Origin: Patescibacteria group bacterium
Lineage (GTDB): Bacteria > Patescibacteriota > Patescibacteriia > UBA10025 > JAHIVO01
Direction of reading: 5' to 3'
DNA: 64,000 nucleotides
Assembly (NCBI GenBank): GCA_041660605.1
Contig: JBAZWB010000002.1
Location: forward strand, 170,408 to 234,407
Each line of letters begins with the position of its first letter. Position 1 is the first letter of the stretch. The notes under the pieces are model-generated. The model was given only the letters and a program-made list of their open reading frames with translations, did not search any database and was not told where the DNA came from. The position numbers and the translations under genes are program-made. Shown here one piece after another: positions 2,567 to 36,918 of the stretch.

Positions 2567-2604
2567 ACTTATAAAAAATTATGCACCTAAATTTTTGAAT
2601 AATT

Positions 2605-4062: not shown

Positions 4063-4077
4063 TAAAATTAATTTATG

Positions 4078-5643: not shown

Positions 5644-5663
5644 AATATATTATTATATGAAAA

Positions 5664-6251: not shown

Positions 6252-6269
6252 AGCTCGGGGCCTTTCGGA

Positions 6270-6833: not shown

Positions 6834-6854
6834 AAATCTATCTTCGGCTTCACT

Positions 6855-6912
6855 CAGATTAAAAAAGATTTATAAACCGAAACCCGACTTCGGACTATCA
6901 AGCTTTAGCTTG
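6855..6912. repeat. two short hairpin-forming palindromes (CCGAAacccgacTTCGG and CAAGCTttAGCTTG) immediately 5' of the HUH transposase gene
   Basis: Both inverted repeats are read directly from the sequence. IS200/IS605 ends carry subterminal hairpins that TnpA recognises. Confidence 0.4.
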
Positions 6913-6924
6913 ATAAAAAACTCC

Positions 6925-9697: not shown

Positions 9698-9732
9698 ATT
9701 ACAAAATCTTATTTATTAACCCATGCCTGCTT

Positions 9733-9830
9733 TATTTTCATATTTTTTTCACTACTCCTTTGGTGGCATCCACCTCTACTCTATCCCCATTTTTTGCCGA
9801 TTTTGTCCCTGAAGACAAGCGAAGTGCTGA
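9733..9830 (-). pseudogene. 3'-terminal remnant of another swivel-domain paralogue (encodes ...LRLSSGTKSAKNGDRVEVDATKGVVKKI*)
   Basis: The reverse complement of 9733-9806 translates to KNGDRVEVDATKGVVKKI followed by a stop. This is the same C-terminal consensus seen in the intact array genes, and no upstream body is present. Confidence 0.5.
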
Positions 9831-9914
9831 CTGAAGGGGTACAAAATCGAGTATCCCGCTGACCCCTGAAGCTGAGCCTGCCGAAGCTGAAGGGGATAGC
9901 GGGAAAAAACTGCC

Positions 9915-11006: not shown

Positions 11007-11008
11007 AA

Positions 11009-12085
11009 TTATTTTTGTAACAATTTTACTTGCCCACGCGTTGCATCCACCTCCACCTTATCACCATCTCTTAAAACTTGAGTGGCGATTTTCGTACCGA
11101 TGACGCAAGGGATCCTTAATTCGCGGGAAATAATTGCAGCATGCGATGTAATTCCGCCCTCATCAGTAATAATAGCTTTTGCCCTCTGGTATGCCAAGAT
11201 AGTATCAGGGCGAGTCATCTCGGTTACTAAAATTTCATTTTTTCTGAATTTTCTGATTTGATTGGAGATATTATGCGATTTGTGGAGTACCAACCTTACA
11301 CTACCCCTGACTTTTCCTTTGTACGCTATTGTACCAGTAATTGCTTGTTTTGAATTAGTAAAATAATGATTAACCCATTTCCATATTTTTTTATATTCCT
11401 GACCGGTTAAAATAATTTCCCGACCACCCATTTTCCATAAAAGATATCCCTTTTTTCTACGCGAAATTAACTTTTGCGGAACACTTTTCCCTGTAAACAC
11501 TTTATTTATCTCTTTGCTGGTATAAAAATATAAATCTTGAGCGGCAATATTGAAACTTTTCCCAACTGTTGTTAGCAATTCTTTAAAAAGCAGATAAAAA
11601 ACTTGCTCGCCGGCCTTCCGCAGTTTAAAACGCAAGCGGCCAAGCTGATGCATTGTTTTTTTCTCCTTGGCACTGGCCAATGATTCAAATTTTTTTAGCC
11701 TCACCTCCTCAGTCCAGGTATAAATATTACTGTATCTATTGAGCAAGGAAACCATTTCCTCAAATAAAACCTTCAGCTGTCTATTACTCAACTTTTTGAT
11801 ATCAGTATTCCCGTATTTTTTGATGAATTGCCCAATTTGAAAAATAATTCGATCAGCATTTTTATGATACGCAGCAAAAGCGCCTGCCTGACTAAAAAAA
11901 CGGTGGCCTTTCTGGATTTCCTCATTATAACGGCCATTAATAAAATACAGATGTAAAACCGATTTATTATAAAAACACAGTAAATTATCATTTAAAATTA
12001 AATGGCGCTTATCAGTCAGCCAAAAAAGCGGTAACAAATATTCACGCGCCCAAAATTCTACTGATTTAATTTCTGATAAGCTCAT
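11009..12085 (-). CDS. PEP-utilizing-enzyme mobile domain protein, array member 7 (358 aa)
   Basis: The C-terminus TRPDTILAYQRAKAIITDEGGITSHAAIISRELRIPCVIGTKIATQVLRDGDKVEVDATRG matches the swivel domain. Confidence 0.75.
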   Translation of the reverse strand: MSLSEIKSVEFWAREYLLPLFWLTDKRHLILNDNLLCFYNKSVLHLYFINGRYNEEIQKGHRFFSQAGAFAAYHKNADRIIFQIGQFIKKYGNTDIKKLSNRQLKVLFEEMVSLLNRYSNIYTWTEEVRLKKFESLASAKEKKTMHQLGRLRFKLRKAGEQVFYLLFKELLTTVGKSFNIAAQDLYFYTSKEINKVFTGKSVPQKLISRRKKGYLLWKMGGREIILTGQEYKKIWKWVNHYFTNSKQAITGTIAYKGKVRGSVRLVLHKSHNISNQIRKFRKNEILVTEMTRPDTILAYQRAKAIITDEGGITSHAAIISRELRIPCVIGTKIATQVLRDGDKVEVDATRGQVKLLQK

Positions 12086-13578
12086 GATATTTTTTTAACT
12101 ACGCCTAGCTTCGCATCCACCTCAACGCGGTCGCCGTCTTTTAAAACGCTGGTGGCCGTCTTCGTGCCAACAATACAGGGTTTTTTCAGCTCCCGGGCAA
12201 CGATGGCTGCGTGGCAGGTGATGCCGCCCTCGTCAGTGACAATCGCCCGGCACTTGCGCATGGCCGGCACAAAATCAGGGTGCGTGGTAACCGCAATCAT
12301 AATATCGCCCTGCCTGATTTTCCGTAAGTCATGCTTGGTATAGATTACCTGTGCCGAACCCACCACCTGCCCGGGCGAACCCGCCATCCCGTGCAGAATA
12401 CGCGTTTCGTGAATACACTGGCCGCCAAGTTCCTGCTTGATCATTTTTTTAAGCTCTGGGCCTTGCATCACGACAACCTCGCCCCCATGCTTCCGCAATA
12501 ATCCATAAGCTTTAACCCGTGTCTTTAATACTGTTTTGTCCACTGGTAATTTTCCCTGCGTAAGGTAGGCAATCATTTCCTTTCGGATTAGATGGGTTAT
12601 TTCTTTAATAGTAACGCCTGCCCGACGGGCTAACTCATGATAAAGCGGTTGGATATTGTGGCTACCTAAACGGCGGTAATCATCGCGCTGATCCTTAATA
12701 AACGACATTTCATGCGCCATAATCAATAGTTCTCGCTGGCGGGGAGTAGGATACAGCTCATGCAATATTTTCTTGAACATCCGCTGGCGGTAGGGGAAAC
12801 GTTTTCTTAGCTGGCTTAACTCAAGCTTTAGACTAGCAATATTCTTCCGGAGCAACTTGTTTAATTCCGACATAAAGTATTCCCTTGTCCATGGCTTATC
12901 ATTAATGTCATAACATGGCAGCCAGCGGTACTTCTGCCAGTGGAGATTAATCAGGCGGCCAATAGCTGCTTGCTTCAGCCGAGGCTGGCTTTTTGTCCAA
13001 ACAGCCAGCTTAAGTAAATTTTCATGTTCGCTAATTACAGCATTCTTTTTTTCCGGTGAAAATATTATCTCAACAATTTCCTCCGTATCCGACACGCGCT
13101 GGTGCTGACGGAGGAGCTTTTGCAGCTCTTGTTCGGCGACCTGCGAAATAAAAGGTTCCGTAATAAATGGCACCCAGATCGGGCCATTGAAAAAATCCAG
13201 ATGCAGCCGATCAAACGCTAAATAACGTCTTCTCAGCTCTCTCCATGATAGTTTAGTCAGGTTACCGTTGGCCAGCTTCTGCGCGCCGCTGCCATATCTA
13301 ACCTGCCATCGCCGGACCAACTGCATATAGTAATGAAAAGTTGGCAGGTTTTTACAGGTGCCGTAATATACTTTTTTGGTAAAACGCTGCCATTCTGCAT
13401 TTTCATAATATATCGTATGATTGCCACGTTCGGGAGCGACCAGGTTGTTCTGCAGACTGGCATGAAAACGCTTCCGGTAGAAATCCGAAATAAAAACCCG
13501 GATGACAATTTCGAACCGCTGGCTGCAGAATTTCCGGGAAAAATAATGGGTCCAAACTATTTTTTTATCTTTACTCAT
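12082..13578 (-). CDS. PEP-utilizing-enzyme mobile domain protein, array member 8 (498 aa)
   Basis: The C-terminus THPDFVPAMRKCRAIVTDEGGITCHAAIVARELKKPCIVGTKTATSVLKDGDRVEVDAKLG matches the swivel domain. The start codon overlaps the stop of member 7 in an ATGA arrangement. Confidence 0.8.
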   Translation of the reverse strand: MSKDKKIVWTHYFSRKFCSQRFEIVIRVFISDFYRKRFHASLQNNLVAPERGNHTIYYENAEWQRFTKKVYYGTCKNLPTFHYYMQLVRRWQVRYGSGAQKLANGNLTKLSWRELRRRYLAFDRLHLDFFNGPIWVPFITEPFISQVAEQELQKLLRQHQRVSDTEEIVEIIFSPEKKNAVISEHENLLKLAVWTKSQPRLKQAAIGRLINLHWQKYRWLPCYDINDKPWTREYFMSELNKLLRKNIASLKLELSQLRKRFPYRQRMFKKILHELYPTPRQRELLIMAHEMSFIKDQRDDYRRLGSHNIQPLYHELARRAGVTIKEITHLIRKEMIAYLTQGKLPVDKTVLKTRVKAYGLLRKHGGEVVVMQGPELKKMIKQELGGQCIHETRILHGMAGSPGQVVGSAQVIYTKHDLRKIRQGDIMIAVTTHPDFVPAMRKCRAIVTDEGGITCHAAIVARELKKPCIVGTKTATSVLKDGDRVEVDAKLGVVKKIS

Positions 13579-15071
13579 AGTCTTTTAATTATACCCTTAT
13601 TTGCATCCACCTCAACCATTTCGCCATTTTTAAATAACCGCATGGCAAAACGGGTGCCCACCACACAAGGTATTTCCAATTCACGGGAAATAATTGCGGC
13701 ATGCGAAGTCAGGCCGCCTTCATCAGTGACGATCGCGCCGGCCCTACGAATCAGCGGTACAAAATCCGGCCTGGTCATATATGTCATCAGCACTTCGCCT
13801 TTTTTTAATTTTTTCCCCTGCAAACCAGGTGTCTCAATCTTTCTGACACGCCCGCGATAATATCCCGGCGAAGCCGCTATGCCTTTCAATTCATTAACGC
13901 CACTTTTTAAATTCATCTCATTAATAATTTTCCAAATAGCGGCAAGCTGGCGGCCGGTTAAAATACCTTCCTGGCCATCGGCAAAAACATAATACAGCAT
14001 TCCCGATATTCTTTTTTTCAGATCCGCTCGGACAATTTTTTTTCCTTTAATGCTGGCAATGAACTCCTGCGGTATTAAATGCTGAGCCTCTGAAACCGAT
14101 AAATTGGAAATTTTCGTTACCTGGCTAATAAAACGATTGCACCAATAATTACCCAATAAATTAGCCACTTTTCTCTCATCCTGCCAATGGGCGGCGAAAC
14201 CGATGCGCTTCAGCTTTTTTATTTCCTCCTTGGATAATTTGGTCTTTTGTTCTGCCTGATGCTGCCGCCGACGTAAATCCTTTTCATAGTTTTTTAAATA
14301 GATATGCCTATTATTAATTTTCTGGTAATTTTCACTATCAAGCATTCTTAACTGGCTGTAAAATTTCCCCAATGACAACGGCTTTGTATCGCGATAGTTA
14401 AAATGCATCCAGTAATATTCTTTTTGGATCTTAATTAATTTTTGATAAGCCGCCGGCTGTTTCTTCTTAAAAATTTCCAGAGTTTTTGGCAATCTGCCTT
14501 TCAATTTCAAATACAAATCAAGCAGTCCCAGCTCTGCCATTTGTAAAAATGCCAGTTTTGGTGGGCTGGCAAATAATATGATATCCTCGTCAATTTTTGA
14601 TAAAAACCCATATTTACTCTTTAAGTTTTTAATCAATTTATCACCAGCCAGGGAAAAATACTCGGTAATCAAAGGCAGGCTGTATTCATACAAATATAAA
14701 TTATAAAAATTAAGGAAATCCCGCTGCAAATTTTTGATCCCCCTATGCGCCAGGTGATCTAAATTTTTATAATACCGTCTTTTATCCTTCTCCCACTGAA
14801 AATATATTTTGTTTACAAAATCAACATGGCCTAAACACCACTCACCCAGTTTGGTTAATTCGTCTTCGTCAAAAATCCAATACGCGCGATTGCCCCCATT
14901 GAAGGAAGCGATAATAATTTTTTTCGCTTGTAAAATAGGGAATCGCCGGTGCATAATCTTCGTTATTGCCTCAGCTGGTATGATAAACATTAGAGGTACG
15001 CCAACTCCGCCTTGGATTACCCAGCGCTTTGTGTTTATTAATATTTTCTTTTTTGTACTTTTAAAATTCAT
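13575..15071 (-). CDS. PEP-utilizing-enzyme mobile domain protein, array member 9 (498 aa)
   Basis: The C-terminus TRPDFVPLIRRAGAIVTDEGGLTSHAAIISRELEIPCVVGTRFAMRLFKNGEMVEVDANKG matches the swivel domain. The N-terminus has KEYYWMHFNY and HWQDERK. Confidence 0.8.
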   Translation of the reverse strand: MNFKSTKKKILINTKRWVIQGGVGVPLMFIIPAEAITKIMHRRFPILQAKKIIIASFNGGNRAYWIFDEDELTKLGEWCLGHVDFVNKIYFQWEKDKRRYYKNLDHLAHRGIKNLQRDFLNFYNLYLYEYSLPLITEYFSLAGDKLIKNLKSKYGFLSKIDEDIILFASPPKLAFLQMAELGLLDLYLKLKGRLPKTLEIFKKKQPAAYQKLIKIQKEYYWMHFNYRDTKPLSLGKFYSQLRMLDSENYQKINNRHIYLKNYEKDLRRRQHQAEQKTKLSKEEIKKLKRIGFAAHWQDERKVANLLGNYWCNRFISQVTKISNLSVSEAQHLIPQEFIASIKGKKIVRADLKKRISGMLYYVFADGQEGILTGRQLAAIWKIINEMNLKSGVNELKGIAASPGYYRGRVRKIETPGLQGKKLKKGEVLMTYMTRPDFVPLIRRAGAIVTDEGGLTSHAAIISRELEIPCVVGTRFAMRLFKNGEMVEVDANKGIIKRL

Positions 15072-16530
15072 TTCTCAATTTTTTTACATAACCGGAGTTG
15101 GCATCAACCTCTACTTTGTCACCATCCTTGAACACTTTAGTACCTATTTTCGTCCCTATTATGCAGGGCTTACCTAATTCACGGGAGATAATCGCTGCGT
15201 GGCAGGTGATGCCGCCCTCATCGGTTACCACCGCTGATGCCCTTTTCATTGCTGGAGCAAAATCCGGCGTCGTCATGGAAGTTATCAGAACATTCCCCTG
15301 CTTTAGTCTGCCTAAGATATCACCCGCTTGATGCGATACCCTGGCAATACCCCTGGCCTTGCCTGGCGAAGCTGCTATACCTTTTATCTTGTCAATATTG
15401 GCAAAATTTTTCCGCCCAAAAACTTGGAGCTGCTTGTCTTTTGCCTTTTGGCCGCCTAAAACAATAAACTTACCCCTAGTGGCTTCGCAATACAAATATT
15501 TCTGGCGGCTTCGCACTTCCTGCCAGTCAATTGCTTTATTTATCATAACCTCGTTTATTTCCTCGGGTGTGCACCATAAAAGATCGTTAAAACTGATCTG
15601 CCTTTGCCGATTTATAAATTCCCGTAATAACAGACGGCTGGCATACATGGCCTTCATCTGAATTTCTTTCCTCCAATCATGCAAAACCGCAATTTTTTCA
15701 ATCAATTCTAAATATGAACTAATTTTTTCCGGCAGATGATATTTTCTTTTTATTTCACTTTTTTTGCGTTTGATGTTTTTAGGAAAATTCCTGGCTTCTT
15801 TGATCTTTTGATCAAGCTGTTCGGGCGTAAAATTTAATAACTGCTTAATTCTGGTTTTAATATCGGCTATAGTCTGAATTTCAACGTAGCCCCAGCCAAG
15901 TGAGATCCACCAAAATTCATTATAATGCCTCATGATCAAGGCATCTTTGCGTTTCCTGACGAGCTTGTCTTTTATTTTTCTGGCAATAGTTAAAAGGCTC
16001 AGCTCTTCCTTTTGTAAATATGTAGGCTTAGTGGGGGTTAATAGTATATTTTGGGCATAATGATCCGTTGATGGTATCAGCTTATTGAGCAGTGGCGGCA
16101 AGATCACCTCTAAAGCTTCATCAACGCCATCCAAAGGCATTCCCAAATTAGCAAAGTGCAGATAATTACTGCTGAATTCCGTATATGATTTATAAAGAGC
16201 TTTATTGGAATACTGCTTTAAATTTGCGGTAACAATTTCTTCAGTAAAACTAATATTCTTTTTCTGCCAATACTTCCAGATACGGAGATAAGTATTTTTA
16301 AATTTATCTGAATTTATCAATCTATCCGCTATTCTTATGCCATACTTTAAATTATCTTTATAAGGATAAAACCAGCTTAAATTTTTTCCGGTTGAGATGT
16401 AAATAATCCTGCTAAAATCAATATCTAATTTTGAAAGGTTATGATTTACAGGGCCAATAACCCAATAGTAAAGCACCTGGGGTACGCAATTACCACGGCT
16501 ATACTGCATCCATTTTGTGCCAATTATCAT
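15061..16530 (-). CDS. PEP-utilizing-enzyme mobile domain protein, array member 10 (489 aa)
   Basis: The C-terminus TTPDFAPAMKRASAVVTDEGGITCHAAIISRELGKPCIIGTKIGTKVFKDGDKVEVDANSG matches the swivel domain. The N-terminus has NEFWWISLGW and HDWRKE. Confidence 0.8.
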   Translation of the reverse strand: MIIGTKWMQYSRGNCVPQVLYYWVIGPVNHNLSKLDIDFSRIIYISTGKNLSWFYPYKDNLKYGIRIADRLINSDKFKNTYLRIWKYWQKKNISFTEEIVTANLKQYSNKALYKSYTEFSSNYLHFANLGMPLDGVDEALEVILPPLLNKLIPSTDHYAQNILLTPTKPTYLQKEELSLLTIARKIKDKLVRKRKDALIMRHYNEFWWISLGWGYVEIQTIADIKTRIKQLLNFTPEQLDQKIKEARNFPKNIKRKKSEIKRKYHLPEKISSYLELIEKIAVLHDWRKEIQMKAMYASRLLLREFINRQRQISFNDLLWCTPEEINEVMINKAIDWQEVRSRQKYLYCEATRGKFIVLGGQKAKDKQLQVFGRKNFANIDKIKGIAASPGKARGIARVSHQAGDILGRLKQGNVLITSMTTPDFAPAMKRASAVVTDEGGITCHAAIISRELGKPCIIGTKIGTKVFKDGDKVEVDANSGYVKKLRNEF

Positions 16531-16673: not shown

Positions 16674-18374
16674 CTATTTTTCTTCCTTGGACAGATTCAA
16701 AATAATCGCTAGTGAATTAAAATCCAACAATTGCAGATATTTTTCCGTTTTACTGTTGGTATGCCGGAAGCGCAGGTTCTCGGGCGCAATATTATCCAAA
16801 TGAAGCTTCGCCTGCAAATCCAAACCCAGGCCTTTTTTCAGGTTATTAAAAGCCAGTAAAATATTATTAGTGCGATCGCCAATAGTATCAATTTTTGACA
16901 GGTTCAGTCCGCGCGTCTGCTCCAGTAATTGGCCTAGTTCCTCTCTGATACCCTCTAACAACTTTACCTGGGGCTTTTTTAATCCCTTTCCGACAGCTTT
17001 AAGCTCAGCGGCGCTTAACTTCTGCAGACTCTCCGCCGCTTTTCTATTATTAATAACCTGGGTAATTTCTCTTATTGCCGATTCCATTGATTGCCAGGCA
17101 GTCCAAAATTCGTTAACCTTTTTATCTTTTGATAATTTAGCTGCCTCATAAGCGCTATGCGCTTCCTTGGCCTGGCTGGTCAGTTGTTTCTGGACGCTCT
17201 CCAGGTCTCCAGACTTTGCATCAGGGCGTAGGCCAATTGATGCCGGGTTATCCAGGGCACTGGCTTCCACTGGAACTAAAATTTCCTGGCCGGCCTGAAC
17301 CCTCAGGCTATCCAATCGGGGATTATAGTTCACTACCTCCCCTTTATTATTAATAATTGTAGTTTCCGCTGCCTTTTTATCCTGCAAATCAACAACGTCG
17401 TCATCATCCCATTTGTCTTCATGTCTTTGATCGCTGACCCTTTGGACATTATGCCAATACTTTTTATCCTGGCGGTGTGACAACGCTTCCAGTACCAGTT
17501 CGCTGTACTCGGCATCTGCCTTTTCTCTGGCTTCAGCTTCAGTCAGGCCCTCTTCTTCCATAATTTTTTCCATTAACGCCTGCTTATTCACGCCCTTCCC
17601 TTCATCCAAATCAAGTATGCCAGCAGATATTTTACCAATAAAATCCTCTATCTTGGCCACTTGGGCTTCTGTTAGTTCTACCTGTTTCTGTGCCTCTGCG
17701 TCATCACGATGTTCCTTGGCATTACGTTGCTGCGCCTTTACCCGCTCCACCCATTCAACCAATAAATCTAAATTTTCTGCGAATGCATCAAACAATTCGC
17801 CCTGAAAATGCTCTGTTTTTACCTCCAGAAGTTTGCTCACACTTTCCTTCAGATTCCATTTTCCCACATTACTAAGCTCGCGAAAGGCTATATTGTTTTC
17901 ATCATCTGCTGCCTCTAAAAAATAATCCTGACGTCTCTGCTTCTGGACAAAAATCCGGCCTTCACGCTTTTTATTAAAATTAGCTGAAATTTCTGCTCCT
18001 TCATCTTGCCGCCAGTCATCCGTACCGCATTTACTCCATATTATCTCACTTGACTCAGGGTCAAAAGTGGTAATCCCTTTCAACCAGGCATCCTGGTTTT
18101 TTAACCCCAATTCTTCAAGACGCCTGGCGAGCATCAGTGTGCCACGCGTATCCCCAAACATATGCTTCAATAGTACCTGTGTCGCTGCTTGCGACACCAC
18201 CCCTGGCCTGATATTGTTGTTTTTGAACCTTTCAACCTCTTCCGGCTTCCGCAATAAATCCATAGCTTCTTCTGGAGAAGCCAGCTTCTCTTCCATATTA
18301 TTTACTTCCAAACTATCGCCACCTAAACCATGTTCAGAAGCCAAAATTTCGCCCCCTGGTATTTCACGGCTCAT
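16674..18374 (-). CDS. hypothetical soluble protein (566 aa) with a coiled-coil C-terminal half. Its N-terminal domain is paralogous to the C-terminal domain of the 1060-aa membrane protein
   Basis: It shares the motifs LLKHMFGD, WLKGI, QKQRRQ(D/N)Y and NVGKWNL with ORF 19762-22944. The composition is acidic and helical. Confidence 0.55.
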   Translation of the reverse strand: MSREIPGGEILASEHGLGGDSLEVNNMEEKLASPEEAMDLLRKPEEVERFKNNNIRPGVVSQAATQVLLKHMFGDTRGTLMLARRLEELGLKNQDAWLKGITTFDPESSEIIWSKCGTDDWRQDEGAEISANFNKKREGRIFVQKQRRQDYFLEAADDENNIAFRELSNVGKWNLKESVSKLLEVKTEHFQGELFDAFAENLDLLVEWVERVKAQQRNAKEHRDDAEAQKQVELTEAQVAKIEDFIGKISAGILDLDEGKGVNKQALMEKIMEEEGLTEAEAREKADAEYSELVLEALSHRQDKKYWHNVQRVSDQRHEDKWDDDDVVDLQDKKAAETTIINNKGEVVNYNPRLDSLRVQAGQEILVPVEASALDNPASIGLRPDAKSGDLESVQKQLTSQAKEAHSAYEAAKLSKDKKVNEFWTAWQSMESAIREITQVINNRKAAESLQKLSAAELKAVGKGLKKPQVKLLEGIREELGQLLEQTRGLNLSKIDTIGDRTNNILLAFNNLKKGLGLDLQAKLHLDNIAPENLRFRHTNSKTEKYLQLLDFNSLAIILNLSKEEK

Positions 18375-18394
18375 ATAATTATTATTTAATATTT

Positions 18395-19744
18395 TTAATC
18401 GTTCTCTGAAACTAGCTTGCTGTTTTTTATATAATTCTTTGCCCAGGTAAAATTGCCTGTCTCCTGGTCGCCATAAGCTAAGCCTTCATAGCGCACGCCC
18501 ATTAACTGTCCGATTTCCACTCCGACGAGCGCTGAATCATTTTCATCAAACTCAAGTTTTTCCCTCAATAAATACTGCAATAATTCTGAAATTCCCGCCG
18601 GTGAACCAGGGTCGCTTTTAAGCGCGAAAGTAGCGCTATTTATTTCATCAGGTTTATATTGTGAAGCGTACTTTTTTTGTATATACTCCTGCACCGCGGC
18701 GTGCCAGGCCAGGTTATCGCTCAAAGCGGTCGCCAATGATCCCTGCCGAGCCAATATTTTTAAGCAGGCGATAACTTTTATTTTCTCGTTTTGCCGTGAA
18801 GCCTGCGCCAGTTCTCTTTTTACCATTTCTGGCTCGCCCTTGGTGTCGTTAACCAGCTGGTCTTCCAGGTCCAATACAACCTGTCTCTGCAGGCGGTAGT
18901 CCTGATATTTTTTCTTCAATAGTGCCAGAGGGTCTGACTGCCCGACTGGCGCTGATTCCATTACTGATTTATCAATATTTATAACTTGTGACTTGCCGTT
19001 TTTTGGCTTCATTGGTTCAAATGTCTTTTGTTTTGCTATAAGTACAAACCGTCCGTTCTGTAAATCAAAGATATTACCGTCATCATCAATCATGGTCATG
19101 GTATCTTCAATACCTTCCGGCGTTAATGACGGGATGCCTAGTCTCTCAAAAAGATGAAAAAGTTCTTTGAGCTTTTTCTGTTCAGTATAGGGTAGTTTTT
19201 TAAAATTAATATTATCAGAAAAATACTGCGCTTCTTTTAATTTGTCCACGCCCTCTGTCCCTACTTTCCGGAAATAATCGCGAAACCAATTTTTTACCAC
19301 GCTGGGCACCTGTTCATTGTTTATTACCAGAGAACCCGGCACTCTCTGGTTATTACGTAATAATGCCTGGCGCAGGCGCTCCTTAAAAGCATCTCTCTCG
19401 CTAATATAGATCTGCACCAGTCTCCCAATTACAACGTCCATTAAATCAAAATCTTCGGAGCCAAGCGCATCATAAATCCTTTGCTCAAAAAATGATTCTA
19501 CTTCTTTTTCCGAATAAAACTGCAAGCCGGCAAACCGCAGTTTGGATATCCATAATGAATAGCTGCGCTCTAATTCGTTCATCGCTCCCTCCGGTCTGAT
19601 CTGCAGGGTTTTATCGAGAAATTCGGCCAGCTGATAAGTCCGCCGCTCAACAAACCTGACATAATCATAAGCTTCGCTAAAAACCCGCTTGGCGAATTCC
19701 GGCTCCAGAAGCTTTTGCCTGGTTGTATTTTTCAGATCAATCAT
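18395..19744 (-). CDS. hypothetical protein (449 aa)
   Basis: Complete ORF in the same operon-like minus-strand run. No recognisable motif. Confidence 0.5.
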   Translation of the reverse strand: MIDLKNTTRQKLLEPEFAKRVFSEAYDYVRFVERRTYQLAEFLDKTLQIRPEGAMNELERSYSLWISKLRFAGLQFYSEKEVESFFEQRIYDALGSEDFDLMDVVIGRLVQIYISERDAFKERLRQALLRNNQRVPGSLVINNEQVPSVVKNWFRDYFRKVGTEGVDKLKEAQYFSDNINFKKLPYTEQKKLKELFHLFERLGIPSLTPEGIEDTMTMIDDDGNIFDLQNGRFVLIAKQKTFEPMKPKNGKSQVINIDKSVMESAPVGQSDPLALLKKKYQDYRLQRQVVLDLEDQLVNDTKGEPEMVKRELAQASRQNEKIKVIACLKILARQGSLATALSDNLAWHAAVQEYIQKKYASQYKPDEINSATFALKSDPGSPAGISELLQYLLREKLEFDENDSALVGVEIGQLMGVRYEGLAYGDQETGNFTWAKNYIKNSKLVSEND

Positions 19745-19761
19745 AGAGATGCTATTTTAAT

Positions 19762-22700
19762 CTAAGTTGTGGGTTCCCCTGGCTCGCTCTCTGGAGCCGC
19801 TTCTTGCTTCGTCTTACTGGCTTTCTCTTTGGAAACTTTCAGGGTGTCCAGGATCTTGCCCAATACGGCAAATGTCCTGTATTGAGTTTCATTATTGGCA
19901 AAAGTACTGGTGTTTGATCCCTTTTGTATCCCTTCCAGTTTTTCTTTCAGTTCCTTACCTATCTTATCCGGCAGACTGCCTATTACTTCATTCAGCTGCG
20001 TGACGCTTTCAGCTATCATTCTGGAAAAATCATTTAAATTGAGGCCTTCTGACGTGGTGTTCGCAACTTTATCCATTGCTTCTTTTATGCTCTGGGATAA
20101 TTTGTTTATTGATCCATCCGGTAATTTTTCTTTAGTGCTGGCAATTTTTTCCTCTGCGTCTTTTACGCTTCCAGCCATTATATTCTTTGTGTCTGTAGGT
20201 ATTTTTACAGGGACAGCCAGTTCCTTGTCAACTTTTATATTGAAATTTTCAACTACCTTTTTAATTTCCGGCTCTGCATTTTTATAAGCCTCCTCAACGC
20301 CAACGTCGCCCTTATTATCTCGCAAGGTCGCTTTAACTAGTTGCGGAGTTGCCTCCCCTATGCGCTTTCTCAGGGCATTTAAGCGTGGATTGTAATGGCG
20401 CTTCTCTCCATCTTCATCTTCAAAAAGATTGTTTCTGGCATAATCATCCATTTCACGGTCATAATCATCATTCTTTGACCAGCCCATCTGGTCACGGTTA
20501 TCGTTCACCGAATGTAAATTATTCCAATACTTAGACCCCTGCCGGCGCTCCACAGCTTTTAGCACATTTTGTCCCCATTGAACTTCAGCTTTCCTCCTTA
20601 AGTCTTCTTGTTCTTTTTCATTCGGCTCTCTTTTATTGTCTCTATCAAAATCCACAAATTTCTCCTTATAAATTGATTCCGGAGAAATATCCTTGACCTC
20701 ATCCAGGCCCAGTTCGCTGGCGGCTAATTTACCTATTACCCCTTTTAATTTGGCTAACTCTGACTTTTCCAGTTCGGCCGGCTCATGATTGTCATGCTGC
20801 TGCTGCACCTTTTCCGCCCATTCTACCAGCAAATCCAGGTTTTCTATCATGGCATCTTTGAATTCACCCTGATAGTGCTCCAGTTTAGTGCTTAAAAAAT
20901 TCTCCGCATTTTTTTGCAGATTCCATTTCCCTACGTTACTGAGTGACCTGAAAGATAAATTATTATTTTCATCCGCGCGCTCAGTTAAATAGTTTTGGCG
21001 CCGTTGTTTCTGGATAAAACCGCGGCCTTCAAGTTTTGAATTAAAAAAAGCGGATTGTTCCGCGGCCTTATCTTCCCGCCAGTCTTCCGTACCGGCTTTA
21101 GCCCACGAAAGATTGCCCTGCTTATCCATGGCGACTATGCCTTTTAGCCAGGAATCAGACTGATGCAATCCCTGTTCTTCTATTTTTTTTGCGATACGCT
21201 TTGTATCTTTAGAATCGCCAAACATATGCTTCAATAGATTTTGGGCATCCTCCTGTGATACTTTACCGCCGCCATTATTATATTGCGTCATAACATTGGC
21301 AAATTCTCTCCTCTTCAGCACTTCATTAAAGTCATGCGAACCTAGCAGAAGTTCTAAGGAACCTTCTGCTTCCGCTACTTTTGTCGGTAGGACTCTCATA
21401 TCTTTCGATGTTCCAGAGTTGACCATTCTGCTTATAATGACTTCCTGCTCAGTACCGGCAGCCGCTATCTCAGATTTGGCTTTGGCAGCGCGCGCGGCTC
21501 TGGCCTGCGAAACATAATCAGTTTTTTCCCTGCCCTGGCTATACACCCGGAACAAAATATCCTCTGCTACCGCCGGCGCTTCACCGAGACGCTGGGCCTC
21601 AATTCTCTGCTTCCTTGATTTCCAGGCAGTAGGGATGGCCCGGATTTGGATGCCATGTTCCTGGATTTTTTCTAAGCCAATTGCTTTGCCTAATTTAGTA
21701 TTGGCGATAGCGCTCCCCAATCTGGTATTCATAAACCGGCGCTGCAGCCCGGCTTGCGAGTCATCAAGCCTTTTTACGCCCCAACCGCCAGCCGCCGAGG
21801 CCGCACCTTTCATAGCTCCGAGGGGAGCCATAATAGAGGCAGAACCCATTTTCTGTATCCTCTGGCTCATCTTACCGGCAAAAGCACCGGCGATGCCGCC
21901 CAGCGACCCAGCCACTGACAAGGCTATTAAAAACATGCTGACTGCCAGAATAAAGCCCAAAATATTTTCTGAGGAAGAAACGCCGGAGATGCCGGCAGCG
22001 ATAACTCCGCCGCCGCCGGATAAAACCTGACCGGCCGCTTCTTCCGTACTGCCGGGTTTTATGCCCATATTACCATTGCCTACAGTCAAAACTGAAAGTG
22101 CCAGCCAGATAAAAAATGCCAATATCGGGCCAATCGTTACCCATTGTCCGAATTTCTGCCACCATTGGGAAGAGTATGAAGCGGCCTTGCCCGGCAATAC
22201 CGACAGGAGATAAGCCAGCGGCGACAACACGACCAGCACCCATAAAACTATGATGCGAATCAAAAAAACCACTACCATGGCCAGCATAACCATCAGGGCG
22301 ATTACCAGTAGAATTATCGCCAGGAAAGGCACGCCGACAACTTCCATAAACGAAGGGGAGCCAGCCGCATCTACCTGGTCGGGGACCGTGGTATTCAACA
22401 TTTCCCGCAGTTTCAGCACTGAAGTAAAATTTCCCGTGGCCGTATTGGCGAAGGCATTCACGAAAGTCAGCATGACTACCTGCCCCAGGTCAATGAAAAA
22501 CGCTGAAATGGTTTTGGAAAAATTTATCAATACCGCCATAATGATCAGCTTGGCCAGGAGGCGGTTATATTTATAATTTTCAATTTTTAAGATAGTACCG
22601 AAGGCAATAACCAGCAGAACAATAATAAAAAACATGTTGCACAAATCTCTGAGCACTGCCCAGCCTTTGCTTACCGCATCCGCCGTGGCAAAATCGTTGT

Positions 22701-22944
22701 ATTGCACTACTCCGATAAGAATATCAATAACGACGACTAATATCTTGCCCAGTATAGAGGCTATCCATAACAATACAGTGGCCAAGACAGAAGCAACTGA
22801 ATCTATGCCCCAGCTGAAAATACTGGCGTTTGCTTTTAATGGCAAGGCCAGAAATGCAGCCGCTACTCCCGCTACCAATAATAAAACTATCCACGGTTTC
22901 GGGCTGTTAAATATTTTAATTTTCTGCCACGCTTTTTGCAACAT
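19762..22944 (-). CDS. polytopic membrane protein (1060 aa). The N-terminal ~450 aa hold multiple TM helices plus a Gly-rich segment, followed by a large soluble domain
   Basis: Several 20-25-aa hydrophobic stretches are visible. One example is VVGVPFLAIILLVIALMVMLAMVVVFLIRIIVLWVLVVLSPLAYLL. A Gly/Ala/Ser-rich linker follows. The C-terminal domain is homologous to ORF 16674-18374. The overall topology is reminiscent of VirB6/TrbL-like proteins, but no family assignment is possible. Confidence 0.55.
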   Translation of the reverse strand: MLQKAWQKIKIFNSPKPWIVLLLVAGVAAAFLALPLKANASIFSWGIDSVASVLATVLLWIASILGKILVVVIDILIGVVQYNDFATADAVSKGWAVLRDLCNMFFIIVLLVIAFGTILKIENYKYNRLLAKLIIMAVLINFSKTISAFFIDLGQVVMLTFVNAFANTATGNFTSVLKLREMLNTTVPDQVDAAGSPSFMEVVGVPFLAIILLVIALMVMLAMVVVFLIRIIVLWVLVVLSPLAYLLSVLPGKAASYSSQWWQKFGQWVTIGPILAFFIWLALSVLTVGNGNMGIKPGSTEEAAGQVLSGGGGVIAAGISGVSSSENILGFILAVSMFLIALSVAGSLGGIAGAFAGKMSQRIQKMGSASIMAPLGAMKGAASAAGGWGVKRLDDSQAGLQRRFMNTRLGSAIANTKLGKAIGLEKIQEHGIQIRAIPTAWKSRKQRIEAQRLGEAPAVAEDILFRVYSQGREKTDYVSQARAARAAKAKSEIAAAGTEQEVIISRMVNSGTSKDMRVLPTKVAEAEGSLELLLGSHDFNEVLKRREFANVMTQYNNGGGKVSQEDAQNLLKHMFGDSKDTKRIAKKIEEQGLHQSDSWLKGIVAMDKQGNLSWAKAGTEDWREDKAAEQSAFFNSKLEGRGFIQKQRRQNYLTERADENNNLSFRSLSNVGKWNLQKNAENFLSTKLEHYQGEFKDAMIENLDLLVEWAEKVQQQHDNHEPAELEKSELAKLKGVIGKLAASELGLDEVKDISPESIYKEKFVDFDRDNKREPNEKEQEDLRRKAEVQWGQNVLKAVERRQGSKYWNNLHSVNDNRDQMGWSKNDDYDREMDDYARNNLFEDEDGEKRHYNPRLNALRKRIGEATPQLVKATLRDNKGDVGVEEAYKNAEPEIKKVVENFNIKVDKELAVPVKIPTDTKNIMAGSVKDAEEKIASTKEKLPDGSINKLSQSIKEAMDKVANTTSEGLNLNDFSRMIAESVTQLNEVIGSLPDKIGKELKEKLEGIQKGSNTSTFANNETQYRTFAVLGKILDTLKVSKEKASKTKQEAAPESEPGEPTT

Positions 22945-22979: not shown

Positions 22980-25900
22980 TTAAGTCGGATCGTAAGTTAT
23001 ATAAGTCTGTAAATAATCACAGTCGTCTCCGTCCGCGTTCCACCGGCAATCGCCTGAAACGCAAACTCCCGCCGCAGTCACGCCGCACCAGTCCCAATTA
23101 TCAACAATTTTAATTCTCACGCCAGTACCGTTAGGATCAGCGGGGTTATATGGCGTAAAAGGCTGCGCGAAATTATAAGTATGGGTCAAATAAATTGTAT
23201 TTGAGTCGTACTTGCCCTGGATGATAAAGTTTGAACCGTCGCCCCAGTTGACCTCAATGCGTTTGAGGGGCTTCTGCTCTTTATCAACATTGACATTAAA
23301 TGCCAGGTGAACTTCGCCGGTCCATAACGACAAACTAACCGGATTCAGTGGATCAGGCTCGGCCATAGTCGTTTGCGAACGGCCCACCCTGATGTCGCTG
23401 ACCACCGGCGGCATGCCGCAGTAATCACCGGGATCATCGCCGAGATTATCAGGGCGCGTGGCAACATTGCACACAGGCATATCGTTATACCCAAAGTAAT
23501 GCTTGCCGCTGATGTCATATCCATTTATCCAGTCATCCATAAAAGAACTGCCAACGCCAATTTTAATATACTGCCTTTGCTGGGAATCCCATCCCCAGCC
23601 GGCCACCGGCTTGGCGAACAAACGTTTTATGGTGTTAATGGCATCTGTCCGGGTCCTACCGGAGGCAAAAACACCGGCGCCCTCCAGGACGCATCTATTG
23701 TCCGCGCCAGTACACTGGGCATTTTCCGTACAACGGATTTTAGTATCTTTCAGGCAAAAACCCGAACCTAAGCCAACGCAAATGCCGTCATTGAGATCCA
23801 TATTCCCGTCATTATGCGCTAAGCATTTGCTAGTTAAATCATTTGACGAGCAATCGTTGGTTTCGTCCCAATTGCATCCCCTGTCCCAGCAATTGCCTAC
23901 GCATGAATATGGGCTGCCGGCCCGGGCGTTGTTGCTGGTTAGCGGATTTTCACGCTGCTCAACTGGTATCATAGGCCAGGAAGTCGGATCCAGTTCGTTG
24001 CGGCCTTGCGATGTGCTGGGATTTACAAAAGCGCCAAAAGGTTTGTAGTCCTGCTCATATTGATACTTCAATCCTTCCGGCACGTCTGGCGGCGGAGGAT
24101 TATCCTGAAGTATATAAGTCGAACTGGAACCGGTACGGCTCGACCAGGCTATCGGCTCTTCAGATAAATCAACTGCCTGGGCGATGGCACTGCAGGATTC
24201 CTTCAGATAAAAATTCAAATGAAATGCTCCATACTCATCCTTTCCTGCTGTTGAATCTTCACCAATAGTTCGGATTTCTTTCAATTTGCCGGTATTATTA
24301 TCAAATATTATCTGCAGCCACATGCACTGATACCCAGAATTTTCGTGGCAGGTGTCAATTGGATATAACCGCCATATCCTGTCACTGCCGCTAACCACCC
24401 TGTCCACTCTCCCCGCGGCGGCGCCACTGTCGCATTTTAATGGCGAAGAATTTTTATTACAGGCATAACCAGCCGTGGTCATTGTCTCTGGCGTGAAATA
24501 TCCGCTATATCCGCCCCAGCCAAAACTTGCATTAGTGACCCACTCCAATTCTACCCTGGATATGTCATCTTCGGTAATATTGCTGGTAATTTTAGAATCA
24601 TAATAGCTATTTGTACTGCTCCAATTGCAATCTGCACCAGGAGGATTGCCAGGCCAGATGCTCGGGGGGTATGGCTGACATGCATCGTCGCCGCCGGTTT
24701 GCACTATCCAGGAGTTTGTATATACTGTACTCGCAAATTCATCATCATGCCATTGAGAGGCAGTCAGCGGCTGTATATAATAATTATCACCAGTAGTCGC
24801 TGCAGGAAAAGTGCCCTCGTTCGTGGTAGTTGATAAGGTCATGCTCGGCTTATTGTTTCCCGGCGCTTCCATACAATAATACAAAGGCCGTCGGCCGGAG
24901 TATTGCGTTGTTTTCAGATTGCTGAAAATGTCAGTCTCACCGGAAATCAGGTCAACCGGCCACCAATTCAGGCAGTACTTGGAATTATTGGGATCCGATT
25001 CAATGCAATAGCCATACCAGCCGTTGAAAGTAGTATTATTTTCGTCAGTATAGGTGCAGTATGGCGCTTCAGCGTTCGGATACATGCGGCAGGACCGGGC
25101 CAGGTTGGTCTGCGTATAGCAATAGCCGCTAGGACAGTTATCGTCCGTTTCGCAGTAATTACCGTCATTGGCGCCGCCGATGCACTTGCGCTCCTGCACC
25201 TGCAGGACCGGCTTCATCGATACGTCATCCAAATAAAACTCCAAATCAGTGAACGGGGTCAGCAAAGAATCACGTACATAGATGATGTTCAGGCGGGCAT
25301 TGACAAAATCTTTAGCGTCGTCATTGCCGTCATCATCAACGCCAGCCGTAATCGGACCCAGAGCGAATTTCTGCCATTCCAAAGACGGCTTGATCCTGTC
25401 AAAAGTCATATAAGTTCCGTTTGGCGCGTTTATTTGATTGCCATCATTATCTAAATATTCCAGCTGCACGTAGATATAATCATCCGGCCGAAACACCTGG
25501 TTGGTTTTTATCTTGAAAGAGACCGCGTACTCTTCGCCCTTGAAAACCCTGGTCTGCAGATCATAGGTCGCGCCGGTATAGTTGCCCGCGGCCACCACGT
25601 GCCCAATATTATTCTCATCCAGGTTGGCGTTCGGCGAGGGTATCTGCCCGCTAGCCGCCTCTTCGCCCCAGAGCATTACTGGCGCGGGCAAGGAATTTGG
25701 AGGCAATATGGGATTCTGCCGTGCGGACCACAAACCGATAGACTGGGTGGGGGTTAGTTTGGAGAATTCTATTTCCAGCGGGGCGTCAGCTTGGCCGCTT
25801 TCATCAACCGCGGACAGCACTTTGCTTAATTCCGCGTTTTTGAAATAACTGCTGTCGCCAAAATCCCCATAACTGATTATATCGCCTTGCGGGGAAGTAG

Positions 25901-28900
25901 TGCCGACTTCTTCCATGGCCTGATAAGGGAAGTCACCCTCAGTCAGCTGAGGTTCCGGAGAGCAGGTGCCATTGTCCACGCAATCGCCGCCCGGGCAATC
26001 GCCCCCGACGGTACAAATCTCATCGGCACGAACGCCGCCGCCGCAACGCATGCAATCAGCATCAATATCGCAAACGTAATTCATATTTTTGCTGCAGCGC
26101 TTATCCCAATCCATGCCGGCCAAAACCATGCCGGAATAATTTTTTATCTTATCGGCAAAAGCAGGCGAGGAATAAGTGTCATTCACCCGTTCATACTGGA
26201 CTTCATCGGTACAGACGCCGGTCTGCTCATCCATTTCATCACAGAGTTTCAGCTTCAGGCACAAATCCTGATTCTGCCCGCTTTCATTAGTGGTAATCAA
26301 TTTATCGGCGCACTCCAGCCACTTGTTGCACACCCTGTCCTTCTTCGCCTGAATGACGCTGTTAGAGTCACAATTGGTCTCCAGATATTGCGGCAGAGGA
26401 GGATCGCCTCCGGAAAAAATATAAGCAACTATATAATTTATATCATCCATATCCACATCACCATCATTATCAGCATCTCCCCGCTCAACCGGAGTTATTG
26501 TTCCTGTTCCATTCAGATAAGCACCAATAAGCTGTGGGTCGCCAATATTTATTTCATTATCATTATTGGTGTCGCCCCGCATTATCCTGGAATTTCGCGG
26601 TATAGTGCACAGAGCGGGGGACTCCTCATTTTTCGTTTCAGTAGCGTCGTAATTCAGGGTTGGCACGCTGGTGTCATTGAACATGAGGCAGCCGCTCTTG
26701 CGATCGACTAAATTATTGCAGCTGGATTTATCCACGTTGCCTGACAAATAATAATATGAATTGCAATCATAAGTTAAGACTCCGTCTCCGCCGCCGTCAG
26801 CCAGATAAACATCACAAGGCTTCGGATGGTCAGGATCGGAATAATCCACCGGATTTTCTGGATCGCGGTATTCCGTACAGCCGGTAGCGGTCGCCGGACA
26901 GGCGCCCACCCAGCCAGCCGCCGGCTGAGCTACGATCTTATCGCGCGGTACGCATAAATCAGCGCCAATAGACGGCCAATCATCGCAATCATTGAATTCT
27001 TGATTATTCAGGGCAGTATTGCAGGCCTGTCCTTTATTATGGCCTCCGACGCAGACACCGTTGGTCACCGGGCAATTAGCCGTCCCCTCGGTAGTGCCGC
27101 TCTGATACCAGCCGGCCACGCTCTGACCCGGAACTTTTGTAAAGTTACAAACCGCCTTGCCCGGATCTTTGAAATAATATTTTGCTCCGCTGGATGAAGT
27201 GTACTCATTGCAGCTGCTGTTTTCGTAATAGCACATGGTCTGGCCGTAATTATCCGGCTGATTAGCCAGATATGCGTCACTGAAAGACGAAACGCTGCCA
27301 TCGGCTTCTATGACCGGCTTGCCCAGGCGCTCACAGCCTACGGCGGTAGCGGAACAGCTTTTCTCCGGATCATTAACAACGAATATCATGCTGTCATTGG
27401 CCACGCCGGTTTTTACCTGCCCAGTGATGTAGCGCGGCAATGGAGATGGACCGCCGTTATGCAAAAATTGATAAAGATAGGTGGAATCTTCCTTGCTAAG
27501 ATTTCCGGAATTATTCAAATCAGCTATTTCAGCCGGGTCAGGGCAGCCAACTGCCGAATTAATACAAATATCCAATAAGGTCTGATCAGCATCATCAACA
27601 GTCCCATCTTTATTAATATCACCCCTTAAGAATCTGTTTACATTGGCCACGGTATAATCGGAAGCGCTGGGACCGACAGTATTCTTAGTGTCAATCATCG
27701 CCTCACATCCAACTTTGTCGTCTCGGCAGAGGCGCGTAAATGATTTCAGATAATGGATAGTGTTTGACCTGTCTTTATATTGATCGCAATTTTCATAACC
27801 GGAGCATTCTTTATATGAATCCTTAATCAAATAAGTGTTTTCATACACCTCATTTATTATAATATTATCAATGTAAAAGGCGTTGGTGCCGAAAGCCACC
27901 AGCTGTACAGCGCTTAAATCCGTGCCCGCTGGTACATATACCGGACCCAGATGGAACTGATTCCAATCTTCGGCTCCGGCCACCGCTTGTCCCGGAAAAA
28001 CCAGCGGGGTGGCGGTATTGAGGGTAAAGGTGATTGGCGTGTCCGCCGTAGCCTTGGCCCAGAAGCTGACTTCATAGGATTTATCAGCGGTCATGCCAAG
28101 GGCCGTGCCGACATTAGCTATCGCGCCGTTATTATTTATAAGCATGGAATGCCCGCCGACATTGACGGATTCGTTGCTGTAGGTAACATTGCCGATCCAC
28201 GGAGAGATTGTGCCATTTTCAAAACTTTCGCTATACACCTGGCGCACGTTATCGCCGGCATTTCCTTTATAAGAACGGCAGCCATTCTGACTGGCAGAGC
28301 AGGAAACGCTCTGTTTGGGAATCAAATGATATATCGCGCTCGCGCCGTCGATGGAGTTGCGGTAAGCATTACAATCCGCGGAAGCGAAAATGACGCGCGA
28401 CTTGAGATAATAATATGTCAAACCGTTGTCATCATAAAATTCCGTACAGTCGGGATTTACTCCGACTTCGGCCGCCAGGCAGGTCGCCGCTAGGTGTGAC
28501 TCAAGAAATCCGTCGCCATTATCATCAAAATCCTTGCCATCAACACAATTAGGCCACCTATTTTCCGGAGCGAGAGCGGAATTTTCTGCCATCATATTAG
28601 TACATGGCCCGAATTCTCCGGGATTTGTCAGATCAGGCCAGTTGCTTTGTTTCAGAGAATATTTTTTCAGCTGATAGCCGAATTCATCAGAACCTTCCCA
28701 GGCATAAAACGTCTTAATTGATGCATCGTCTTCCTGCACGCACAGGCGGATATTGCTGTAATATTCCTTGCCTTCTCCGCCCTGGCCTACGGCATCCAGA
28801 TTCGTATATTCTTCGCAGCCCACGGCTGAAGCGTTGCAGCTCTGGCCGGTGGTGGCGATGAAGGAAACCGGATCCCTGGCCGGCCGCTGCGGTACATGTT

Positions 28901-32941: not shown

Positions 32942-33027
32942 ATATTGAAGCTGATTTTTGTTTTTCCAGTGGCTGGAGTAATAATTTTACCTCTCCATTA
33001 TATCATAATATGTCAAATCTGTCAAAC

Positions 33028-36824: not shown

Positions 36825-36918
36825 GGGAGAGGGATTAATACATTCACCCTTGGGCTATTAATCAGTCCTTCCTCTCCCTCCGGGAGAGGAACCGAAGGTG
36901 AGGGGGTTATACTACAAA
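36803..36918. repeat. copy B of the ~107-bp palindrome-containing repeat. It begins exactly at the leuS stop codon and extends to the DUF559 start
   Basis: It contains CTCTCCCCATGGGAGAGGG and TTCCTCTCCCTCCGGGAGAGGAA inverted repeats. It is a direct repeat of copy A, and the pair brackets the DUF559 gene. Confidence 0.6.

Follow-up and report, generated by a model that had tools for sequence, protein, structure and literature searches.

We analysed a stretch of 64,000 nucleotides (the window) from a Patescibacteria group bacterium (GTDB lineage Bacteria; Patescibacteriota; Patescibacteriia; UBA10025; JAHIVO01; GenBank assembly GCA_041660605.1, contig JBAZWB010000002.1, positions 170,408–234,407 of the forward strand), in which five consecutive open reading frames (ORFs), all on the minus strand, encode proteins of 280, 3025, 1060, 449 and 566 aa. 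Sequence comparisons showed the 1060-aa protein (19762–22944; window coordinates are on the minus strand unless stated otherwise) to be a predicted TrbL/VirB6-type membrane subunit of a chromosomal monoderm-type (MPF_FATA-like) type IV secretion system (T4SS) of Patescibacteria. Its C-terminal region is homologous to the 566-aa protein, and the domain that the two proteins share is an orphan. We consider it probable, though not firmly so, that the 1060-aa protein is an extended VirB6 of this known T4SS, in which the cytoplasmic orphan domain would act as a docking platform and the free paralog would modulate it. The locus refines a known T4SS, and its basic classification is unchanged.

VirB6-like membrane domain and T4SS synteny

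Residues 1–400 of the 1060-aa protein (21745–22944) make up the putative polytopic TrbL/VirB6-type membrane domain with its Gly-rich loops. Hydropathy analysis revealed about seven to eight hydrophobic segments in residues 18–357, conserved across 38 homologues, and the N-terminus is signal-peptide-like with an AxA at residues 38–40. The multi-transmembrane (TM), Gly-rich architecture described in an earlier prediction from the DNA alone (hereafter the original prediction) was thus borne out. At least 885 homologues were found, every one from Patescibacteria. Residues 1–400 are common to them at 40–63% identity, with W95, R99, D100, N103, R230, W235, P242 and W262 among the invariant residues of the membrane domain, and the C-termini are variable, the total lengths of the VirB6-like family ranging from ~800 to 2082 aa.

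The resemblance to VirB6/TrbL, called vague in the original prediction, proved to be real homology, as close relatives passed the gathering score of the TrbL profile and the gene is found in T4SS clusters. With PF04610, the relatives P0051, P0032, P0055 and P0043 scored 29.4, 26.0, 23.4 and 17.3 bits respectively, and the first two exceed the gathering score of 25.9 bits. These matches run from residues ~125–290 onto profile positions ~21–190 of 215, with ~21–182 covered by the two above the gathering score, and over the same region the relatives concerned are 36–46% identical to the 1060-aa protein. TrbL was matched at E≤0.01 by 6/38 family members, precomputed matches to PF19590 (TrbL_3) or PF04610 were present for ~13 of 120 homologues among the matches listed, and a full-length homologue is named 'type IV secretory pathway VirB6-like protein' in one JGI source. 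No match to the N-terminal domain was detected in 72,556 plasmids using tblastn.

Synteny was analysed in 80 species-representative loci annotated using phmmer. The order of genes in these relatives is the 280-aa gene, the giant gene (the counterpart of that for the 3025-aa protein), sometimes a gene for a ~200–400-aa protein, then the VirB6-like gene, a 449-like gene and a gene for a ~500-aa protein, followed by PrgI (VirB3-like), TraC-like/TrsD, VirB4 and a ~200-aa protein. The ancestral arrangement shown by this comparison of gene orders would be one continuous T4SS cluster from the 280-aa gene to the ~200-aa gene. VirB4, together with PrgI and TraC-like/TrsD, was present downstream in 39 of the 50 loci with at least 6.5 kb of downstream sequence (also in L004 and L005), and an array of PEP-utilizer genes was found there instead in 9/50, one or the other being seen in 48/50. 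In locus L073, the 449-like gene is separated from the ~500-aa/PrgI genes by two PEP-utilizer genes, indicating that the PEP-utilizer array is an insertion.

Unlike in the published Patescibacteria T4SSs, the present cluster is divided, with the inserted array and a few other genes separating its virB6 side from virB3/virB4. Leftwards of the window, the same 960-kb contig has one more gene of the PEP-utilizer type, a HAD hydrolase, a 353-aa protein, an opposite-strand gene and a stand-alone PPDK_N, after which come a 460-aa protein, PrgI (PF12666), a TraC-like protein (PF26593) and VirB4 (AAA_10/P-loop_TraG). This core of four genes is on the same strand as the five-gene cluster, ~5–9 kb beyond window coordinate 1, with the 460-aa gene starting ~21.6 kb downstream of the stop codon of the 566-aa gene, and the PrgI, TraC-like and VirB4 genes ~23–24 kb downstream of it. 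The core proteins are 36–85% identical to their counterparts in L005, the value for VirB4 being 85%. To judge from these sequences, the apparatus is the published chromosomal Patescibacteria T4SS (PMC12102498). Among the relatives, many GTDB representative metagenome-assembled genomes with the cluster (L008, L015, L016, L020 and others) are binchicken or SRP co-assemblies titled 'uncultured Gammaproteobacteria bacterium', and one is titled 'Planctomycetota'; the records look mislabelled.

C-terminal extension, soluble paralog and 449-aa protein

Residues ~360–1060 of the 1060-aa protein are hydrophilic and contain no TM segment, as in the class of extended VirB6 proteins defined previously, for which the function of the extensions was stated to be unknown (PMC12857230). 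BLASTP aligned residues 501–893 with residues 9–392 of the 566-aa protein (16674–18374) at 38% identity over 404 columns (E=3e-73). The predicted homology between the two proteins is therefore real, and all five motifs on which it had been based, LLKHMFGD, WLKGI, W..GT(D/E)DWR(Q/E)D, QKQRRQ(N/D)Y and NVGKWNL, are contained in the alignment. The extent of the domain had been underestimated, as the colinear paralogous region is ~390–400 aa long rather than ~200 aa and accounts for two thirds of the 566-aa protein on the N-terminal side rather than half. The membrane-attached copy was matched by the profile at residues 511–921 of the 1060-aa protein (20182–21414), and the soluble copy covers residues 19–424 of the 566-aa protein (17103–18320). 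The leftover tails of both proteins are similar in length (~170 aa) and loosely alike (pairwise E ~1). Thus, from the aligned regions and the equal-length tails, practically all of the hydrophilic C-terminal region of the 1060-aa protein has a colinear counterpart in the 566-aa protein. Residues 922–1060 of the 1060-aa protein, encoded with the stop codon by 19762–20181, form the putative C-terminal helical tail and contain a motif (GL..F...L...LP..IK..L ... Q..F..L..I...L) that is common to many VirB6-like proteins without the shared domain. A hidden ATPase was also considered for the 1060-, 449- and 566-aa proteins, and was rejected because none of the three contains a Walker A motif.

The shared domain gave no match in Pfam, NCBIfam, PHROG or PDB, and scans of the whole 1060-, 449- and 566-aa proteins yielded nothing usable there either. 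No known domain had been recognised in the original prediction either, and neither by sequence nor by fold did we find a match to a known or housekeeping family. An exhaustive search of 1.84 billion representative proteins with a seven-copy profile returned 29 proteins at E≤0.001, nearly all of them 850–1650 aa in length with the domain beginning at ~residue 510, right after the membrane domain; in the 1060-aa protein it is preceded by a K/R-rich post-membrane linker. Five proteins (P0139, P0142, P0148, P0158 and P0147) were considered as further soluble paralogs and rejected as N-truncated VirB6-like fragments on short contigs, the post-membrane linker being kept in all except the 318-aa fragment P0147. 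The possibility that the domain is a fast-evolving universal feature of VirB6-like tails was rejected by an iterative hidden Markov model search of the local set, which converged with the domain in 36/220 VirB6-like proteins. At the level of sequence, the domain is subfamily-specific among VirB6-like proteins. Its AlphaFold2 model, with a mean predicted local distance difference test (pLDDT) score of 69 and values of ~80–93 for core residues 60–320, has a mixed alpha/beta fold with two beta-hairpins. An invariant basic cluster is formed by K136, R140, R148, R165 and K172 (566-aa numbering).

The ~660-aa hydrophilic extension of the 1060-aa protein is most likely cytoplasmic, because the charge distribution is of the positive-inside type, with an excess of K and R, and cysteine residues are absent. 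In residues 351–420, the 70 residues after the last hydrophobic segment, the 38 homologues have a mean of 9.7 K+R compared with 2.4 D+E. There is no cysteine in residues 400–1060 of the 1060-aa protein, one each in the 449-aa and 566-aa proteins, which are both without a signal or TM segment, and 120 in the giant protein. With the soluble region most likely in the cytoplasm, a direct anchoring role is disfavoured. We also weighed the reverse topology, in which the extension would be extracellular and TraG-like, the signal-less 566-aa paralog would be secreted by the T4SS or released at the surface, and both would act with the giant protein at the host-contact site. T4SS substrates usually carry no Sec signal, and in this respect the 566-aa paralog resembles them. 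The span count of the membrane domain is ambiguous (seven or eight), and with an even count, of eight hydrophobic segments once a signal peptide has been cleaved off, the C-terminus would be outside; furthermore, VirB6-like proteins across the family have a conserved tail, and the 1060-aa and 566-aa genes are close to that of the giant surface protein. However, the K/R excess directly after the last membrane segment is family-wide, the extension is Cys-free compared with 4% Cys in the exported giant protein, the conserved 449-aa neighbour is likewise signal-less, and the composition is highly charged and resembles that of coiled coils. An extracellular extension is, on balance, unlikely.

The 566-aa protein was the only stand-alone copy of the shared domain found in the exhaustive search. 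A word-indexed homologue search with the 566-aa protein returned only the protein itself, low-complexity E/K words having probably swamped the index. In a neighbour-joining tree, its domain was placed as the sister of that of the VirB6-like protein of its own genome, on a longer branch. The protein keeps 17 of the 25 family-conserved columns and has lost the N-terminal 'NHD.NE' motif, and the gene is not present at the orthologous loci L001/L035, L002 and L003. From the sister placement in the tree, the retained conserved columns and the lack of any other stand-alone copy, we infer that the 566-aa gene is of lineage-specific origin and goes back to an old duplication in which the 3′ part of the virB6-like gene was copied and the membrane domain left out.

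A duplicate of this kind could also be a functionless leftover of a partial tandem duplication that is drifting to loss, and the limitation of the gene to one lineage, the longer branch, the loss of 'NHD.NE' and of 8/25 conserved positions, and a tail barely recognisable as homologous would all fit such a fate. Against this, the 566-codon ORF is intact at only 38% identity to its parent, which implies long-term maintenance, and this within a probably small, reduced genome (960-kb contig), Patescibacteria genomes being typically under 1 Mb (PMC12857230). Moreover, every core motif and the invariant basic residues are retained, and the gene is tightly spaced in the operon (20 bp). Decay of a useless copy is therefore quite improbable, and we regard the 566-aa gene as a maintained paralog.

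The 449-aa protein (18395–19744) is predicted to be a soluble two-domain helical protein and is the conserved 3′ partner of the VirB6-like gene. A word-indexed search identified 17 homologues, which lie beside VirB6-like genes to judge from several that are on contigs of the same length as those of listed VirB6-like homologues and one that has the adjacent NCBI locus tag (KKF61_01655/01660). The 449-aa profile, mostly through its N-terminal domain, was matched in 68/85 loci, and in the loci checked against coordinates the match was directly 3′ of the VirB6-like gene. The AlphaFold model (pLDDT 81.5) consists of two helical domains with a disordered linker between them, and gave no informative fold match. 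The family is also modular. A 649-aa protein of L005 (13118–15067) contains the C-terminal domain twice, in L062 (9833–12559) a copy of the C-terminal domain is located inside the VirB6-like extension at residues 624–734 (E=2e-5), and fusions of the N-terminal domain with the following ~500-aa protein occur in several loci.

Giant protein, operon and proposed mechanism

The first gene of the module encodes the 280-aa protein (32099–32941) and is followed by that of the 3025-aa giant protein (22980–32057). In the giant protein, the Pfam matches to CBM_4_9 (6e-13) and to dockerin type I (Dockerin_1, 3e-11) agreed with the domains named for it in the original prediction. The 280-aa protein had been described as a Ca-binding anchor; its N-terminal hydrophobic segment, the only one in the protein, was found at residues 20–42, but the match to TSP3_bac remained below the cut-off (24.1 compared with 25 bits). 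The giant protein carries its own N-terminal signal or anchor segment, which together with its 120 cysteines suggests that it is probably exported by Sec and not via the 1060-aa membrane protein. It is presumed to be a surface or host-contact protein.

Giant homologues of 2200–3260 aa with CBM/dockerin domains are encoded directly 5′ of the VirB6-like gene in related loci. By a strict overlap test they were present in 28 of the 32 loci with at least 9.9 kb of upstream sequence and, in addition to these, in L008, where the strict test was negative although the giant is present. A 280-aa homologue was found at the same position in L001, in L005 and in 17/32 fully covered loci. Thus the expected co-conservation with giant-protein genes in related genomes was observed, and the pairing of giant and VirB6-like genes stands; conservation of the five-gene cluster as a whole does not, as only this genome has the 566-aa gene and the shared domain belongs to a small subfamily. 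On both points chosen beforehand to challenge the original prediction the outcome was in its favour, with no housekeeping-domain match for the shared domain and with co-conservation with the giants.

The five co-oriented genes form a tight minus-strand operon, as had been proposed, with intergenic gaps of 41, 35, 17 and 20 bp from the 280-aa gene through the giant, 1060-aa and 449-aa genes to the 566-aa gene, and a gap of 143 bp downstream of the latter. A promoter-like site at 32997–33025, read from 33025 to 32997, consists of TTGACA, a 17-nt spacer and TATAAT with the TG of an extended −10. This site has 12/12 matches to the sigma-70 consensus, was the top site of an 18-kb scan and falls in the 86 bp that separate rsmA from the 280-aa gene, just 5′ of the latter; it is the likely start of the operon. 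No clear Shine–Dalgarno sequence was found for any operon gene, the leaders being AT-rich, which is uninformative on expression of the 566-aa gene.

We propose that the extension, built from the basic linker, the orphan ~400-aa alpha/beta domain with its invariant basic cluster and the helical tail, most likely offers a platform for docking or regulation on the cytoplasmic side of the channel. VirB4, TrsD, the 449-aa protein or substrates would be candidates for binding to it, and a docking role would fit systems without a nearby coupling protein. The 566-aa protein would probably share its binding partner or partners with the extension and tune the T4SS as a soluble adaptor or a competitor, and the 449-aa protein may be a conserved cytoplasmic partner. 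The giant protein would be exported independently by Sec and co-transcribed as the cell-surface or host-contact function of the T4SS, which parallels the adhesin genes prgA/B/C located 5′ of prgH–prgI–prgJ on pCF10.

Several observations, in addition to the ambiguous span count, weigh against this interpretation. The 1060-aa protein itself had no Pfam TrbL match even at E≤1, a search of PDB sequences with the family profile retrieved coiled-coil or low-complexity noise and no VirB6, and hhalign with the 38-sequence N-terminal profile gave a probability of 1% against PrgH and of 0.3% against Tn916 Orf15. In view of these negative comparisons, membership of the VirB6 family is suggested only by transitive homology and synteny. 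The negative result with PrgH matches a published survey, in which the VirB6 profile, and seldom that of PrgH, recovered the VirB6 homologues of Patescibacteria (12/480 with PrgH; PMC12102498). For the synteny counts, the 80 closest relatives out of 546 confirmed ones were used, and the VirB3/VirB4 genes of this genome lie ~22 kb from the 566-aa gene. The shared-domain model, built from a seven-sequence alignment, is only moderately confident, the fold of the domain has no recognisable match to any described family, and the docking or adaptor role is one that we purely infer.

In a more far-reaching scheme, the giant and 280-aa proteins would constitute the host-contact or adhesin part of the T4SS, the 449-aa family would be a new cytoplasmic core subunit, and the orphan domain would replace the coupling protein with the 566-aa protein as an adaptor. 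Within such a larger module of ABY1-type Patescibacteria, the orphan domain would be a receptor for substrates or for an ATPase, and the 566-aa copy would deliver cargo or gate the channel. We hold the combination of all these roles to be improbable and prefer the extended VirB6 with a docking platform.

In the reading that follows the original prediction, the 1060-, 449- and 566-aa proteins would form a dedicated membrane apparatus, independent of a T4SS, for exporting, anchoring or controlling the giant protein. The giant and VirB6-like genes are indeed tightly co-conserved and co-oriented, and the VirB3/VirB4 genes are not adjacent in ~9/50 species, nor in this genome. However, the homology of the membrane domain to VirB6 and an ancestral arrangement as one continuous T4SS cluster speak against such an apparatus, and PrgI, TrsD and VirB4 of that cluster are retained 3′ on the same strand in this genome; the giant protein brings an N-terminal export or anchor segment of its own, and the 566-aa gene is not conserved. 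A new apparatus devoted to the giant protein is thus highly unlikely, and the 1060-aa protein is better read as the VirB6-like subunit of a T4SS that has already been described. It is barely credible that the cluster is part of an integrated conjugative element and not a resident chromosomal secretion system: VirB6, VirB3 and VirB4 are conjugation-type genes and a Y1-transposase-like gene lies inside the neighbouring array, but no gene for a relaxase, an integrase or a coupling protein turned up among the window ORFs that were scanned with Pfam, relaxases are missing from most such clusters in the literature (PMC12102498), rsmA is likewise upstream in L005 as the same chromosomal neighbour, the base composition of the window is fairly even (GC 0.37–0.51, with the maximum inside the giant gene), and the cluster is kept across many species.

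Known systems and neighbouring genes

Chromosomal T4SSs of Patescibacteria, with VirB6 homologues near virB4, have already been published (PMC12102498), and the T4SS was found to be essential in the Saccharibacterium Southlakia epibionticum (PMC10633639); outside Patescibacteria, no T4SS has been shown to be essential for the cell that carries it (PMC10633639, PMC12857230). As in these systems (Quinonero-Coronel et al. 2025, PMC12102498; Wang et al. 2023, PMC10633639), a polytopic TrbL/VirB6 domain occurs here with PrgI/VirB3, TrsD and VirB4, and the cluster is likewise chromosomal and widely conserved, with no relaxase nearby. The ~660-aa extension, the 449-aa partner and the upstream giant CBM/dockerin gene are not described in either of these papers. 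Linkage of virB6 to the giant and 280-aa genes, the 449-aa family, and an extension with a free paralog were not found in the literature searched, a provisional result given its incomplete coverage.

Extended VirB6 proteins are also known in Rickettsiales, where RvhB6a–e are 674–1154 aa in length with a ~413-aa VirB6/TrbL domain (PMC2653234), and as VirB6-4 in Anaplasma (PMC7648143). The likeness lies in a ~400-aa membrane domain followed by a large hydrophilic extension, at a size of ~1000 aa. However, there is no sequence or fold similarity in the extension, and the host here is a monoderm. Furthermore, the duplicated unit in the present genome is the extension alone, as a soluble protein, whereas whole virB6 genes were duplicated in Rickettsiales.

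On pCF10 of Enterococcus faecalis, the genes are arranged as prgA, prgB, prgC, prgD–G, prgH (VirB6-like), prgI (VirB3-like) and prgJ (VirB4). The order of surface proteins, VirB6-like, VirB3-like and VirB4 is common to pCF10 and this cluster, as are the monoderm type of the T4SS and the Pfam matches of the PrgI and TraC/TrsD types. PrgH, by contrast, has 266 aa and no extension, and was negative against the family profile in hhalign; the surface proteins are unrelated, being LPXTG adhesins on pCF10 and a Cys-rich CBM/dockerin giant here, and the conjugative plasmid pCF10 encodes both a relaxase and a coupling protein. In TraG of the F plasmid, an N-terminal VirB6-like domain is joined to a C-terminal periplasmic domain for mating-pair stabilisation and entry exclusion. 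TraG is thus likewise a two-part protein, with a VirB6-like membrane domain and then a large hydrophilic domain with a separate role, although its C-terminal domain is periplasmic and that of the 1060-aa protein is predicted to be cytoplasmic, with no sequence similarity in any library searched.

What is new in the present locus is that the VirB6-like gene almost always follows a giant surface-protein gene in related loci. Adhesins such as PrgB were not detected for the Patescibacteria T4SS (PMC12102498). The upstream giant carbohydrate-binding protein and the small Ca-binding-type protein are candidates for a contact module missed by profile searches. The 449-aa type represents a previously unnoticed soluble family, encoded almost always after virB6, and the free paralog of a discrete orphan extension offers a natural handle for interaction studies of VirB6 extensions.

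The array inserted downstream of the 566-aa gene is a tandem series of 11 paralogs (358–521 aa) over ~17 kb, ten of them in the window at 1001–16530 and one beyond its left edge, where the array continues (L086, 11583–17485). The array genes encode a C-terminal PEP-utilizer 'swivelling' phosphohistidine domain (PF00391, e.g. 9e-24) and an N-terminal region that has no Pfam match and is family-specific. The C-terminal position of the swivel recalls rifampicin-phosphotransferase-type enzymes (PDB 5FBS, 5HV1) split into separate genes, and the stand-alone PPDK_N protein to the left of the window is an ATP-grasp protein of 314 aa. The array is interrupted by a 187-aa Y1-transposase-like gene (PF01797; 6270–6833) and a gene for a 195-aa protein (5664–6251), and the L001 array contains a similar 136-aa Y1_Tnp-like gene (faint match). 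Between the array and the T4SS core, on the opposite strand (L086, 14869–16278), is the gene for a 469-aa protein in which a ~40-aa repeat, 'KQDPAxxLxYLxxHPNxxxSLDDTxLLQD', occurs approximately four times in tandem and which has two membrane segments at its C-terminus.

Three further genes of the window have unusual or large products. A 1046-aa leucyl-tRNA synthetase (36907–40047) contains an inserted alpha/beta serine-hydrolase domain at residues ~455–639 (Ser_hydrolase 2e-19, Abhydrolase_1 1e-10), located between the editing domain and the remaining catalytic core, which is unusual. A 420-aa protein (51100–52362) is a fusion of signal peptidase II (Peptidase_A8, residues 16–147) with a PP2C-type phosphatase (residues 163–375). 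Finally, a second large surface-type protein of 1446 aa (52866–57206) carries CarboxypepD_reg and FG-GAP repeats.

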